This document shows positions 48,607-54,889 of a DNA stretch of 64,000 nucleotides, piece after piece (positions within the stretch are counted from its first letter, which is position 1; every line of letters starts with the position of its first letter). The stretch spans positions 870,364-934,363 of the forward strand of contig ML996696.1 of NCBI GenBank assembly GCA_010356995.1, read 5' to 3'. The stretch comes from Trichodelitschia bisporula. Its lineage: Eukaryota. A program made the translations under genes and the position numbers. The notes below the pieces were generated by a model that had not been told where the DNA came from, ran no database searches, and was given only the letters and a program-made list of their open reading frames with translations.

Positions 48607-49968
48607 ATGCTGCAAATGAGCGATTGGATGGTTTATCGCAACCGCGGGGGTCCAGACACCAGATATTCGAGCCGCTCGCAGTCCATCGACGAGACACGCC
48701 CACCTGTTCATCAATGGACTCATCTGCGGAGTAGCCGCTCGCGCCCCAAATCAACCGACTCTAGCCACCATGTCAGCAGTCTCTCCGCATCCATGGACAT
48801 CGCAAGAGGCAACGCTGCCTCCGTATCGAACTCTTCCACCTCCAGCGTTAACAACACCGACAAGGACGACGCTGTAAACCCGTTGGTGCTCCGCCACGGC
48901 CGCCGCTATCTCCGCGACTTGTCGTACCCGCTCCCGTGCGATCTCCCCGAGCTACACCGGCAGAATCTGCACACGCTACTGGCGACGGAGGTTTTCGGCA
49001 AGGCCCTGTGCTCGCCGTTCGTTAAGAAACGCCCGCCGAAGAATGTGCTCGAGATCGGCTGTGGCACCGGGTTCTGGTCGTCGCTGTGCCACGACTACCT
49101 AACCGATCTCGGCGTCCTCAATGTCTCGTTCACAGGCCTCGACATCGTTCGCCTCGCACCGGATCTCGAGAAACAGGGCATCAACTGGAAGTTCGTGCAG
49201 CACGACATCCGCCGCCTTCCGCTGCCATTCGACGATGAGGAGTTCGACCTGGTACTACTCAAGGACCTGAGTCTCGTCGTGCACTCGGGCGCCGCGACAG
49301 AGCGACTCCTGGACGACGCCATCCGGGTGCTGCGCCATGACGGGGTCGTCGAGATCTGGGAAACAGACCACATCATCCGCTCCTTGCAGCCGTACCCCCC
49401 GACCGCAGCCTCGCTGATCAAGCGGCCAGAGGAGCAAGCCCGTGCGCTCGAGACGGGCACCTTCATCGTATCGCCCGCAACGCCCTTCTCCAAAGCCCAA
49501 AACAAGTACCTGGGCGACTTCAACACGTGGATCCAGGAAGCCTGCGATAGGCGGAAGCTGTCCCCCGTGCCATGCGCCAATGTCCAGCCGATGCTGATCC
49601 AAGAGACGGACTCGCTGTGCGATATCGGGTTCCGCCGCGTCGCGATTCCGTTTGGCGAGATGAAGTGGGAGCGGCACGATCCGAAGCGGCGCAGGGCGGC
49701 AGCGGCGGAGAAGGGGAAAGGGAAGAGCCTGGCTGAGCCTGACGATTCGGTTCTGAGCGAGGAGCAGGCTAGTCTGAGGACGACGGCGCTGCTGGTCGTA
49801 GTGCAGCTGATTGAGAGTCTGGAGCCGGTGCTCAAAGAGGTGAGCAGCAAGAATCAGGAGGAGTGGCAGCGGTGGTGGGCGTGGATGATGGCGGACCTGT
49901 TCGAACAGGGCGGGGCGGAGATGGGGGATTGCTTGGAACTCGGGGCGTATTGGGCGCGGAAAATATGA
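48607..49968 (+). CDS. Class I SAM-dependent methyltransferase-domain protein
   Basis: HGRRY..YPLPCD..E..R, VLEIGCGTGFW, GLDI, LPFDDEEFDLV; start codon uncertain. Confidence 0.85.
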   Translation: MLQMSDWMVYRNRGGPDTRYSSRSQSIDETRPPVHQWTHLRSSRSRPKSTDSSHHVSSLSASMDIARGNAASVSNSSTSSVNNTDKDDAVNPLVLRHGRRYLRDLSYPLPCDLPELHRQNLHTLLATEVFGKALCSPFVKKRPPKNVLEIGCGTGFWSSLCHDYLTDLGVLNVSFTGLDIVRLAPDLEKQGINWKFVQHDIRRLPLPFDDEEFDLVLLKDLSLVVHSGAATERLLDDAIRVLRHDGVVEIWETDHIIRSLQPYPPTAASLIKRPEEQARALETGTFIVSPATPFSKAQNKYLGDFNTWIQEACDRRKLSPVPCANVQPMLIQETDSLCDIGFRRVAIPFGEMKWERHDPKRRRAAAAEKGKGKSLAEPDDSVLSEEQASLRTTALLVVVQLIESLEPVLKEVSSKNQEEWQRWWAWMMADLFEQGGAEMGDCLELGAYWARKI

Positions 49969-50686
49969 GATGGTTCAGAAGGACGGACTGGACTCGGCTG
50001 GGTTCTGGATGTTGGGATTCGGGTTACACGGCGCTCATGAGGATCTTTGTACGACGGTGATGACTCGGGTTTCGTTTGACTGTTAGATCGACGGCTTTTG
50101 GGATCTGGTTCCTTTACTTAGCTCGGGCGAGTGGCTGCCTTGGTAGGCTTGTGATGCTGTGTCGTCGTTTGGCTAGTTGCTAGAGGCTGCTGCCGGACCT
50201 CATCTCACAGTTGCACTTCAATTGATAGAGTTACATCTTGCCATGTCGAAACCGAACCAAGCTACAAGTCCACACCGCCCAGCTTTATCAATGATTCGAA
50301 GACATGATACGTCATCGCGATGTGCCTGCGACTCAGTAGCGTCTCGCGCCCCGCGATCCTCTCACGCCCTCTCTCCCCGCCCTCAACCTCCACGACAGCA
50401 GCCAGCCTCTGAAGCATGCCATTCCCTAACCAAACCGTCATCCCAACGCTCTCACCACCTCACAATTCCATTTTCACTCCGAACTCTCAATTGCTCAATC
50501 ACAAACCCCTCCATTCCCCCACCAGCCTCGCCAAGCACCGAGATCGCCCACGCAGCACGCTAACCACATCTCAACGCCCTCCGCTTACCTGCTCTCCGCG
50601 CTCGCTCACCTCGGCATCTGCGCATGATGTACTACTCTTTATAGTCCAGCACCCACCTTACGCGCTCGCACTGAAACACAACGGCA

Positions 50687-51771
50687 ATGCGTCTCCTCCT
50701 GCGCGTCCCGCGCGCCCTCAACCCGCGTACCGTCACCCCGCGCAGCGCCCTCACGCCCCCCGCCCTCGCCTCGCACTCCCGCACATACGCCTCAAAACAA
50801 CCCCCCATCGACCCCTCCGCCGTCGCCTCCGCAGCAGCAGCCCTAAACCCGCGCTGGCTCTCCGATCTCAAAGCCCGAATCGGGAAATGCATAACCTTCG
50901 GCCTTCACCAGGAACAAGTAACCGAAGCGGGTGCTATCTGCGCAGTGCTAGGCCAGGAATGGAGGGAACTAGTCGCGGGCGCAGAGGGCTATCTGACAGA
51001 CCCAGGGCGACGGGGACTGTGGGGGCATGCGGTGGTTTGGGGGGATCAGGTACGTCTTCCGTGCGAGGGTGGGAGTAGGGACAGGGGCTAATGAGGGGGA
51101 TAGGATTCGATGGTGAGTTTGCTGTCGCCCGGTTGTGTGGGGGGGGGGGCTGATGGGTGAAGGGTGAGTGGGTTGGATATTGGTGGTAAGGGGGAGGCTG
51201 ATGGGTCAGGCCATGTGAACAACGTAACCTACAACCGATACGCCGAGTCCGCGCGCATAAACTGGGCGTCCAACTACGCGAAGCATCTCGACCCGACGCA
51301 CGCGAGTCACTGGGCGAATCTGTGGACGCCCTCGGGGCAGGGTCTGATACTCAAAAGCATTACTACGGACTTTAAATTCGTGGGCCACCTCCTGCTCTCT
51401 CCTACACCCGCTGACCCCCGCAGCCCTTAACGTATCCGGACCGCATAACGGTGCTACACAAGCTCCGCGCCCAGCCCAAACCGCACTCCTCCGCCTTCAC
51501 CCTCTCCTGCATCGTCCTGAGCGAGAAGCACCAGCGGCTCGCGGCGCGGTGCGAGGAGGTCATTGTTCTGTATGACTATGTCAAGGGGCGCAAGAGCGGG
51601 ATGCCGGATTTCATGCTAAGCGCGTTCGAGACGACGTGGGATCTGCAGGAGAAGAGAAGGGAGGAGGTTTTGGAGAGGGTGCGGGGGTTGACGGAGAGGG
51701 TGAGGGAGTTGGAGAGGGGGAGTTGGGATCGGGAGGGTGCGGTTGAGGATATGGGAAGTGCGAAGGGGTAG
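50687..51771 (+). CDS. Hotdog-fold (4HBT-like) thioesterase, probably mitochondrial; exons 50687-51049, 51104-51112, 51163, 51210-51379, 51424-51771 (296 aa)
   Basis: VVWGDQ|DSM|G|HVNNVTYNRYAESAR motif reconstructed; Arg/Leu/Ala-rich presequence; exon lengths sum to 891 nt. Confidence 0.88.
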
Positions 51772-52122
51772 ATGGTGACGGTAAACAGCTAGACGCCGAT
51801 GACGGTGAACAGATGCCATTGCGGATTCCCTCCCGCGCCCACATGCTCGATATGGAGCCTAGGAAATAGGCCGGAGCCGCGCCGTGTCGCCTTCCCTCTT
51901 CGGGGCATGCGTGGATGGTGTACAAGCAGAAATTCAAGAGCAGAAACAAAGGAATAGCAGAAAACGCCAGAGGTATCTCGCCCGAGCAACAGAGCAGCAC
52001 AGCAACAAGAGAAACAAACAGAATTCAAACCGGCACCAGCATCCAGTACTCGCTCACAGCCATACCTGTCCATTCTCGCGTCTGTCCCTTGTCCCGCTTT
52101 TCATATGCCTCAGCACATCCGT

Positions 52123-52947
52123 CTACCAGCACTTAAGCTTATCCCAGAACCCCCCGTCCCTCTCCTCCTCACTCCGCCCCTTCTCCCCATCCCCACCCTT
52201 CCTCGACTTCTCCGTCGCCACATCCAGCGCCGGCGTACGATGACTCGGCAACGCACCAGCACCGCCCTGGGCCCTCGCCTCAACCACACGTCGCACGAGC
52301 ACTGCCCCAGATTAGCCTTCACCCACCCCAACGCAGAAGATCACCTACAAGCAAACGTCTCCTCCACATTAACCATCTCCCGCGCACTCGTCTCCATAAA
52401 CCCACACCCCCTCTTCCGCGCCCACTCCAATCCCTGCTGACTCCTCACCTGCCTCATCCCCTGCAAATCACACTTATTCCCCGCCACAATCTTCACCGGC
52501 GGCACGGCGCCCACATCCACCCTCCTCTCCGACTCCATCTCAATCAAGGAGTGGAAATGTTCCAATGCGTCTAGCGACGCGGTGTTCGTGATGTCGTACA
52601 CGAGGAGGAAGGCATCGGAGTGCAGGTTCGAGGCCGCCCAGAGACCGCGGTATTCTTCCTGCCCCGCCGTGTCGGTGAGCATCAGGAGGTAGGTTGCGCC
52701 GTCGATGGTGCGGGTTACGGAGTAGGAGTCTTCGATTGTGGGGTCGTATCTGGCCGGTTAGGAGGTTCTGAGGGATAGAGGAGAAGGAATGAAAACGCAC
52801 TCTTCGGTCCATTGCGAGCGCACGAGGCGCAGCGTGATAGAGGATTTTCCTGACGCGTTGTTAGGACTGTGCTTCTGCGAAGGGGGCAAACGTACCACAT
52901 CCGCCGTCACCGCATACTGTGATGGAGATTCGGTTGTTCTCGTCCAT
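52123..52947 (-). CDS. Ras-family small GTPase, three introns, C-terminus KLKCW*
   Basis: GDGGC|GKSS, YDPTIEDSY, DTAGQEEY, NKCD, ETSAR. Confidence 0.92.
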
Positions 52948-54889
52948 GGCTGCGAGGTCCTGTCCTGTGATGCCGATTGTGTAGATTCAATGGCGAAGGT
53001 TTTCCCCGCGATTCGGCTCTGCGCGTCAAGTCCGTATGCAGTTCCTCGTCGCCGTTGCCGCGAGCACTCGCACCGCTCGCCCGCGCGCTACGCGTCTGTA
53101 TGTACAAAGCGCACGGTCTCGGACCAGGGGGCAAAAGGTGAAGCAGCTAGTAGTAAGCGGCGGGAGCACGGGTCGGGGTGTTGTACTATCGGAAGATCAC
53201 CAACGTTGCGAATTCGGATCGAAGGTAGAAGACGCGTTTGCGGACGGGTAAACGGTTGGAAACGCGGTGCAATGGGCGATTGGGAAGTGTGTTTGGGATG
53301 TTTGGGAGTGTTTGCGGAGGGGTAAACGGGAGAAGGGGCCAGAATGCGGCCCTTTTCCACGTTGGCGTTTGGCGGTCGCGGGCGGAGGAGGCGCGGGCGG
53401 AGGAGGCGCGGGGGGAGGGCGGGCGGTTCAGGGGCTTTCGTCTATCGCGGGACGGGATAAGGGAGGGTCGACGGGAATTGAAGCACTTCTGGACAGTGGT
53501 GAATATCAAACGCAGCAATTCAATTGCAAAGCAGAAAGGGAAGAAAGGCAAGTAGTGAAGATAAAAGAGCTCGCGTCGCCGCTTAGTTCTAGGGAGGCGA
53601 GTATCTTGCCCCGTTCCGGCCTCGCCCCGCGGTGCTTTCGGCCATGCGCGCGGGCGGCCGTTTCGGCGGCTTGTACGGTAATCGCGTGAAGGGCAGGGTG
53701 AAATGCTCCGTGAGGGGAGGCGATTGGACGATGCCACGGATGCCAATTCCCAATTCCCAATCGCGGTTCACGCCCATCTCCAACACTCAGCTACCGGCTC
53801 CTTACACGAACTCCATCTCGGCCTCAAACTGCGAGCAAACTTCGTCATCACACAAAGGCAAGGCTTCTCCCATGATTAAGGAGCGACGATCCCGGCTCCA
53901 TCAACGCCCCGCGCGGCCGCCATGCGCCCCGCCCGCTTGCTGTCAACCTGTCATCGCAGAGCGCGAGTGGTCGATAAAGCAACTGGTGCACGGCCTATCA
54001 GTCCACGAGCATCGCCTGTGGCGGAAGAGAGAGAGAAAGGCTACACTACAGTAAGAGCGTAAGAACGACCATCTTCCCGAAAGTCTTCCAGTTCGCATTC
54101 GCGGATCCTCGGCCCGCCCTGCAACGGGCTGCCCGCATGTCTCCGGAGTATTTGCTCCATTCACTGGCCTTGCATCGCCGCCATGCCGTTCAGCCTTGTC
54201 CATGGGAGGCGTGCGCGATAGCAGGGGAGGATGCTGGCGTTAATGAGGAGGTAAGCGCGCATGGCGCGCTAAGCCTTTATCCGCAAGCGCGCGCGCAAGG
54301 CTGTGTAAATCTCCACGGTCGGAGAACCGCAGGACCGGGCCCTAAGGATAGCGGCGCGGGGGAGCCGACTTCGCGGGTTGCAACAATGAACACCTTCCAG
54401 ATACAACGTAGATCAAGTAGACATCAAGCCTTTTCTACTTGCTGGGTTCCTTTAGACGAGAGCAGAATCGTCAATGACTGAAACCGCGCGCAGCCTCACA
54501 CCCAATGCGGAACATCACCTCGCGCCGAACACGCCGAACAGCGGTTCGCCCGAAACACCGCACCACCATCTCGCCATGATATCAAGCAGCCTCCCGCCGC
54601 GGGCCTTGAGCATTACAACACGATCTTAATCTCCCCTCCCCATACCCATACCTACAGCACGTACCCGTATCCCGTACCAAACTCGCAACCATTCCTCATC
54701 CCTCGTCCTCTACCAATCCACGATGCCGCCAACCCCTCCATCCCACCACACCTGTCCGCCTCGTAAGCGACCCGAACCCCCAAGCCGAGCAAACTGCACC
54801 CTCATCCTCCCGACCAACCCATCCAATCCCCTCCCATTCCACCCTTCCAGACCAATCCTTACCTCGTCCCTCCCCCTCCCGCCCATCTT

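Follow-up and report, generated by a model that had tools for sequence, protein, structure and literature searches.

Background

One-nucleotide (1-nt) exons are already in print. For APC11 in Arabidopsis, proof of such an exon came from reporter constructs in which the base was deleted or replaced (Guo and Liu 2015, PMC4674806), and a 1-nt exon in the context AG/G/GT (slashes mark exon-intron borders throughout) has been reported for the CYP621A P450 genes of Fusarium, in 20-24 genes with reads from the Sequence Read Archive, where it was called the second known case and the first from a fungus (Nelson and Syed 2026, PMC12940212). A long-read re-annotation of Coprinopsis cinerea counts 13 one-nucleotide exons in 13 genes, along with 57 two-nucleotide exons (PMC12230235). 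Here, we describe a well-supported further example rather than a new kind: a single G at position 51163 of a 64,000-nt stretch of the Trichodelitschia bisporula genome (contig ML996696.1, positions 870,364 to 934,363; this whole stretch is called the window below), which very probably forms an exon of its own in a hotdog thioesterase-like gene.

Two further kinds of arrangement are relevant to this locus. A stwintron consists of an external intron whose donor, branch or acceptor element is broken up by an internal one, so that the external intron turns canonical only once the internal one is out, or of two introns that share a G; stwintrons of the [D1,2] and [A2,3] types underlie 1-nt shifts of introns (Fekete et al. 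2017, PMC5587772). Recursive ratchet points are zero-length exons (AG/GT) in which a 3' splice site stands directly before a 5' splice site, so that removal is stepwise (PMC4674806).

Gene structure and transcript evidence

The thioesterase gene occupies positions 50687-51771 of the window on the + strand and is divided into five exons (363, 9, 1, 170 and 348 nt) by four GT-AG introns (54, 50, 46 and 44 nt). We are highly confident that its third exon, G51163, is constitutive and one nucleotide long, and that the introns on either side of it, 50 and 46 nt in length, are both complete GT-AG introns of the U2 type that can be recognised independently. On its upstream side, exon 2 (51104-51112) is a 9-nt microexon, GATTCGATG, which encodes Asp-Ser-Met, and intron 2 (51113-51162) runs from GTGAGT through GCTGAT to GAAG, with its branch-point A at 51153, 9 nt from the 3' end. 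On its downstream side, intron 3 (51164-51209) opens with GTGAGT, contains GCTGAT and ends in TCAG, with its branch-point A at 51201, 8 nt from the 3' end. Exon 4 (51210-51379, 170 nt) starts with GC-CAT-GTG-AAC-AAC (GCCATGTGAACAAC), that is, the last two bases of a Gly codon followed by HVNN, and G51163 is the first base of that codon, GGC, in the motif D-S-M-G-H-V-N-N. Introns 2 and 3 each have a donor, a CTGAT branch site and an acceptor of their own, and their sizes are like those of the other introns of the gene (54 and 44 nt). A first-pass annotation, made from the letters of the window, had described the 9-nt exon, the lone G and both introns, and its coordinates, lengths and motifs were exact to the base.

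To see what the transcript contains, we mapped contigs from four public runs on 50600-51850: X1 and X2 are DNA runs, and X3 and X4, from one sample of a second study, were guessed to be RNA. One contig each from X3 (depth 459) and X4 (depth 198) covers 50600-51050, then holds the eight letters ATTCGATG, and then continues with 51209-51379 and 51424-51850. Since 51050 and 51209 are G as well, the aligner set the leading G of exon 2 on the former and the lone G on the latter. The transcript between 51049 and 51210 consists of exactly ten letters, the 9-nt exon and one G, and the gap downstream of 51112 and before 51210 is 96 nt, not 97. The junction GATTCGATG-G-GCCATG, which the first-pass annotation had predicted, was found in the contigs of both runs. 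Intron 4 appears in both runs as a clean GT..AG skip of 44. Because all four introns are exactly absent, we took X3 and X4 as complementary DNA.

The same annotation had raised the chance that raw genomic reads would carry an extra G. The contigs of the DNA runs X1 and X2 (depth 191 and 400-540) match the window and have neither insertions nor deletions against it. In X2, the DNA contigs are split into pieces of 31-60 nt at 51135-51225, with minor versions at depth 6-7.5 that are one letter off the major ones at depth 120-180 and contain no insertion or deletion; these minor versions are probably sequencing errors or assembly-graph bubbles near the G-rich stretch. A run of 11 Gs at 51139-51149 lies inside intron 2 and is therefore without effect on the reading frame. 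Introns 1-3 are G-rich on the coding strand and intron 4 is C-rich.

The remainder of the gene is ordinary in layout. Exon 1 (50687-51049, 363 nt) runs from the ATG to GGGGATCAG, ends in phase 0 with VVWGDQ, and encodes an Arg-rich N-terminus that looks like a mitochondrial presequence; the RNA contigs cover it to 51050. Intron 1 (51050-51103, 54 nt, GTACGT...GCTAAT...ATAG) is spliced out in the contigs of X3 and X4, as are introns 2 and 3, and the letters of exon 2 and the single G of exon 3 are present in them. Exon 4 is covered over 51209-51379. It is followed by intron 4 (51380-51423, 44 nt, GTGGGC...CTGAC...GCAG), whose joint runs from 51379 to 51424 in both RNA runs, and by the coding part of exon 5 (51424-51771), which comprises 345 nt and the stop codon TAG at 51769-51771; the RNA contigs reach at least 51850. 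No Rfam family was found within 49500-53000, and no open reading frame of at least 70 amino acids on the minus strand spans 51104-51209.

The lone G in the reading frame and the encoded protein

With G51163 in place, the spliced coding sequence is 891 nt long, stays in frame through ...VVWGDQ-DSM-G-HVNN... and encodes 296 amino acids. When G51163 is omitted, translation gives DSM-A-M-stop, the immediate stop that had been foreseen, at codon 127 and upstream of intron 4. The five-exon model is identical in 296/296 residues to a deposited protein (P0001, hypothetical protein EJ06DRAFT_530848 of Trichodelitschia bisporula), and the public gene model therefore already gives the same product.

We assigned the protein to the 4HBT_2 hotdog thioesterase-like superfamily on the basis of an above-cut-off score and full-length coverage of the domain. 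Residues 116-249 of P0001 match positions 1-122 of the 122 positions of the Pfam profile 4HBT_2 (PF13279) at 87.8 bits (gathering cut-off 25.5; E = 9.7e-25), with one ungapped stretch across the junction. By exon, the part of exon 4 at 51212-51379 starts at profile position 11, and exon 5 covers positions 58-122. The closest solved structures are the small bacterial hotdog thioesterases 2fuj and 5byu, both of which share D-x-x-G-H-V-N-N; PDB 2fuj_A aligns without a gap through W-x-D-x-D-S-M-G-H-V-N-N and has the same D-M-D-S-M-G-H-V-N-N spacing. We take D-x-x-G-H-V-N-N to be the 4HBT active site and its Asp to be catalytic; our own analysis shows the conservation of the motif. Among 122 public homologues, the spacing from WGxx to HxNN is exactly four residues in 103. 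The earlier claim that G51163 is required for the frame and for D-S-M-G-H-V-N-N thus agrees with the transcript contigs, the Pfam alignment, the spacing of 2fuj and 34 of the 78 informative orthologous loci that are described below.

We also enumerated the splice sites that could produce this spacing. With GT-AG introns of at least 38 nt and 12 coding nt left over, the window gene has two solutions, of which the one with the 1-nt exon scores 11.6 and the other 0.3. On both strands of the 64-kilobase window, a regular expression for a pair of complete intron-like units (GTRNGY, CTRAY, HAG) that lie 1-2 nt apart had a single match, the 51113-51209 site itself; block-shuffling the window 100 times gave 0.09 matches on average, with at least one match in 7/100 shuffles. 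A wider search of 51030-51215, with no more than three introns and a minimum of 35 nt for each, returned 378 formal GT/GC-AG combinations that would restore the frame by other sites. These are ruled out by the RNA contigs and also break the conserved spacing; for example, joining the donor GTGAGT at 51113 to the AAG at 51190 would give DSM-GEADGS-GHVNN, which the RNA contigs rule out.

Orthologue survey

To compare intron positions in orthologues, we searched metagenome contigs with an alignment of homologues, which yielded 80 orthologous fungal loci, 78 of them informative. Each locus was anchored on its WGxx and HxNN codons, all GT-AG solutions that leave 12 coding nt were enumerated, and loci at which the anchors failed were read by eye. 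The 1-nt-exon layout, ...ATG/GT..AG/G/GT..AG/GN, was found in 34/78 informative loci, with the same AG/G/GT junction as in the window. In 22 of these it is accompanied by intron 1, as in the window, and 12 have intron 2, the 1-nt exon and intron 3 (two of these 12 contigs are truncated and do not show the state of intron 1). No intron is present at the site in 19 loci, 2 have intron 1 only, and 1 has introns 1 and 2. In another 17, intron 2 stands alone and a complete GGN or AAY/CAA codon comes after it, and the remaining 5 have a 2-nt exon of the form AAG/GG/GTGAGT...CAG/N. The position of intron 2, in phase 0 after the Met codon, is occupied in 57/78 informative loci. Intron 2 occurs without intron 3 in 18 loci, and intron 3 without intron 2 in 0/78.

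After merging proteins that are at least 97% identical, the orthologues with a 1-nt exon form 27 distinct groups, or 28 with the window. AG/G/GT is invariant in 28/28 of these, and the flanking intron positions vary. Intron 3 is 46-62 nt long in 27/28 and 158 nt in one, and intron 2 spans 50-344 nt. A strict CTRAY 5-40 nt from the 3' end is present in 23/28 copies of intron 3 and in 14/26 copies of intron 2. As a control, we took distinct loci that have intron 2 without intron 3 and asked whether an AGGGT inside the intron would divide it into two pieces, each 40 nt or longer; this was so in 0/15.

The five loci with a 2-nt exon (L018 and L022-L025) belong to one clade and read AAG/GG/GTGAGT...ACAG/C or T, so that the downstream intron lies one base further 3' and has the strong donor GTGAGT. 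For L018, L022 and L023, the 2-nt-exon parse is the sole GT-AG solution. Compared with the relatives that have a 1-nt exon, this clade looks like a one-base slide of the intron.

Age of the layout

As read from the genomic sequences, the 1-nt-exon layout is old and occurs in many diverged orthologues of Pezizomycotina. The distinct orthologues that have it encode proteins that are about 50-65% identical, and the exon, being kept over such distances, is therefore no short-lived accident. The nearest named proteins of the 1-nt-exon loci are from Pleosporales, such as Decorospora (83%) and Clathrospora (80%), and for other such loci they are proteins of lichen-derived metagenome-assembled genomes, such as Pleopsidium (about 70%), or, more weakly, of Chaetothyriales (about 58-60%). 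Loci with intron 2 only are nearest to proteins of Sordariomycetes and Leotiomycetes and to Cladosporium/Zymoseptoria-like proteins.

We built a quick, unrooted IQ-TREE tree of 66 rows and 232 columns, with the junction itself left out. The 1-nt layout is present on either side of the midpoint root, interspersed with intron-poor clades, and a single origin is compatible with the starred branches. As the tree is unrooted, gain and loss are not formally separable. The distribution suggests that intron 2 is very old, that intron 3 is old and was cleanly lost several times, and that its position one base further 3' in one clade came about by a one-base slide.

We considered whether intron 3 could be a recent tandem duplicate of intron 2 and rejected this. 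The two introns share GGCTGATGGGT near their 3' ends (51145-51162 and 51193-51209), and their global alignment scores 13 against a shuffle mean of 5.8, a score reached by 35/2000 shuffles; introns 1 and 2 are about as alike (21/2000). Since the layout is old, we read the likeness of introns 2 and 3 as a matter of G-rich composition and shared signals, not of recent duplication.

A weak downstream donor and a possible order of splicing

Among the distinct orthologues, the two introns differ in their donors. The intron 3 donor is G/GTA in 27/28, with a G at +5 in only 5/28, the GTGAGT of the window being among the five. The intron 2 donor has G at +5 in 26/26, and so does the donor of the loci with intron 2 and no intron 3 (15/15). 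Fisher's test on this contrast at +5 gives 9e-11 when shared ancestry is ignored. The acceptor of intron 2 is AAG in 23 of the 28 orthologues, TAG in 5 and CAG in 0, and intron 3 ends in CAG in 10/28.

Short fungal introns are recognised by intron definition, in which the splice sites pair across the intron, and introns 2 and 3 could therefore each be removed alone. We observed the content of the messenger RNA (mRNA), the signals in the genomic sequence and the conservation, and from these we infer that the two introns leave in two separate reactions, with the G between them staying in the mRNA to open the Gly codon; other lineages would have lost intron 3, or all local introns. The branch point of intron 2 lies 11 nt upstream of the 5' splice site of intron 3, which argues against simultaneous assembly and for sequential reactions. 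Removal in ordered steps, which the first-pass annotation had held to be probable, is plausible; we favour an order in which intron 2 goes first, since most relatives have a weak intron 3 donor. The weakness may have a steric reason: strong binding of U1 11-14 nt past the branch point of intron 2 would hinder assembly on the 3' end of that intron. A weak intron 3 donor would keep U1 off, so that intron 2 would leave before the downstream 5' site came into use. We hold it possible, though on balance doubtful, that the exon is ancient across several classes of Pezizomycotina and that its splicing is obligatorily ordered by an intron 3 donor that has been kept weak, making it a natural one-base "recursive" step. 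If this were true, the locus, with its one-base slide from a 1-nt to a 2-nt exon and its repeated precise losses, would be a natural series on how the spliceosome handles an exon too short to bind.

Alternative explanations

Several points weigh against G51163 being a constitutive exon between two introns and against the age given to it. The RNA support comes from one sample of one study, and its run type was a guess ("RNA?"). The deposited gene model was probably built with the same RNA, so that the RNA and the identity of the protein are not independent. No partly spliced intermediate or lariat was seen in the assembled contigs, from which rare forms are dropped, and no RNA contig lies on 51062-51187. 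The architectures of the relatives were assigned from their sequences by enumeration and by eye, and at four loci (L019, L020, L072 and L073) the top ad hoc score went to a parse with a 1-nt exon C (Arg), not G; the G parse was kept there because the Gly is conserved. The placement of the metagenome loci at class level by 58-83% identity to named proteins is suggestive only. The DNA runs X1 and X2 may be the source of the assembly itself and hence not independent of it. Finally, the mRNA alone fits two GT-AG introns or one 96-nt intron with TG..AG or GT..CA ends equally well.

This last point underlies the closest rival, in which one non-canonical intron of 96 nt, at 51114-51209 (TG..AG) or 51113-51208 (GT..CA), leaves in one step and the internal AG/G/GT is coincidental. 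The mature mRNA would be the same, and the flanking letters allow a 96-nt deletion to be shifted to these two positions and no others. We nonetheless consider it very unlikely, for it would require TG-AG or GT-NA ends in all 28 distinct orthologues. Coincidence also fits poorly with an internal AG/G/GT that is invariant in 28/28 while its neighbours vary, with a distance of 46-62 nt from this junction to the 3' end in 27/28 while the upstream part ranges over 50-344 nt, and with a branch-site motif in each half. Each half is moreover of normal size beside the 54-nt and 44-nt introns of the gene, and one clade has GG between the same signals. An error in the assembly would dispose of the exon altogether: if the genome had an extra G at the border of exon 2 and intron 2, or of intron 3 and exon 4, an ordinary 97-nt GT-AG intron would remain. 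The G-rich surroundings, including the 11-G run, and the possible shared origin of the DNA runs and the assembly speak for such an error, but the deep DNA contigs carry no inserted letter, and the versions that differ by one letter reach only depth 6-7.5. A layout with two Gly-codon bases after the last AG also recurs in 34 independent metagenome loci and is therefore not explicable by errors in one assembly; we regard an assembly error as extremely improbable.

A further possibility, raised by the first-pass annotation and compatible with the constitutive exon, is a regulated switch in which the intron 2 donor is joined to the intron 3 acceptor (97 nt), the G is skipped, and the resulting Met-Ala-Met-stop sends the transcript to nonsense-mediated decay, tuning the level of the thioesterase. 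The stop that skipping creates, at codon 127, lies upstream of intron 4, and the two donors of the window are equally strong (GTGAGT), which makes cross-pairing conceivable. Against this, only the inclusion form is present in the contigs of X3 and X4, both from one sample, contigs being prone to drop minor isoforms and decay to remove them. Long conservation within a codon of the catalytic motif suits a constitutive exon, and the fact that other lineages have cleanly lost intron 3, or both introns, more than once argues against essential regulation. We judge a switch of this kind unlikely.

Public gene models

In 19/122 public protein models, an insertion, deletion or frame change falls exactly between WGxx and HxNN (P0002, P0003, P0005, P0006, P0009, P0011, P0022, P0028, P0033, P0037, P0039, P0047, P0070, P0100, P0102, P0109, P0114, P0117 and P0118). 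The model from Parastagonospora nodorum, for instance, reads DSMGNYYYYG-HVNN, and one from Decorospora has a deletion. Gene predictors probably mishandle the 9-nt and 1-nt exons in these 19 models. Separately, four models of 428-468 amino acids (P0101, P0104 from Exophiala xenobiotica, P0037 and P0060) have the thioesterase fused to a short-chain dehydrogenase or another domain and may represent merged neighbouring genes.

Comparison with known systems

Our search of the literature on one-nucleotide exons, which took in few subscription journals, found nothing on the thioesterase family. Very few one-nucleotide exons are backed by RNA, and the gene provides the second, independent fungal family among them. 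What it contributes is the breadth of conservation, the intron states that stand side by side, and the odd downstream donor; with no intron, one intron, a 1-nt exon and a 2-nt exon in one family, together with a weak donor, the problem of two spliceosomes one base apart becomes testable.

The first-pass annotation had called the intron pair reminiscent of fungal stwintrons, and this likeness did not hold. As in stwintrons (PMC5587772), two short U2 introns of Pezizomycotina are in contact, consecutive reactions are envisaged, and the arrangement bears on 1-nt differences in intron position. Unlike in stwintrons, both introns of the thioesterase gene are complete and independent, neither requires the removal of the other, and one base is retained where stwintrons retain none. 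Because no splice signal is interrupted, the locus falls outside the definition given in that report; neither the [D1,2] nor the [A2,3] reading fits, as 51114 is T and 51162-51163 are GG. The locus resembles recursive ratchet points (PMC4674806) in having a 3' splice site next to a 5' splice site and in the stepwise removal that we propose. Ratchet points, however, contribute no base to the mRNA and work in very long introns, whereas here one base is kept and the introns are near the minimal fungal size. A recursive site in the strict sense, with a zero-length exon, is ruled out, since one G lies between AG and GT and is retained in the RNA contigs.

The Coprinopsis re-annotation (PMC12230235) indicates that 1-nt and 2-nt exons recur in fungal genomes and that missed ones break gene models. 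It is a genome-wide tally in a basidiomycete, and ours is a gene-level, evolutionary account. APC11 (PMC4674806), like the thioesterase gene, has a constitutive, frame-essential 1-nt exon between two GT-AG introns. The APC11 exon is an A in a plant gene whose rice orthologues are intronless, and it is not widely conserved, whereas the thioesterase exon is broadly conserved and is known from sequence and transcripts rather than from mutation.

The nearest parallel is that of Fusarium CYP621A (PMC12940212). Both exons belong to Pezizomycotina, both consist of a single G in AG/G/GT that supplies one base of a Gly codon in a conserved motif, both are kept in orthologues and have public RNA support, and in both the frame is broken if the base is omitted. 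The two differ in that ours lies in a 4HBT_2 hotdog thioesterase, not a P450, and in that our G is the first base of its Gly codon and theirs the central one. The CYP621A exon is described from one genus, and the thioesterase exon occurs in 28 distinct orthologues whose nearest named relatives belong to several classes. Beyond what is described for CYP621A, the thioesterase family also shows intron 2 alone, no intron, and a 2-nt exon.

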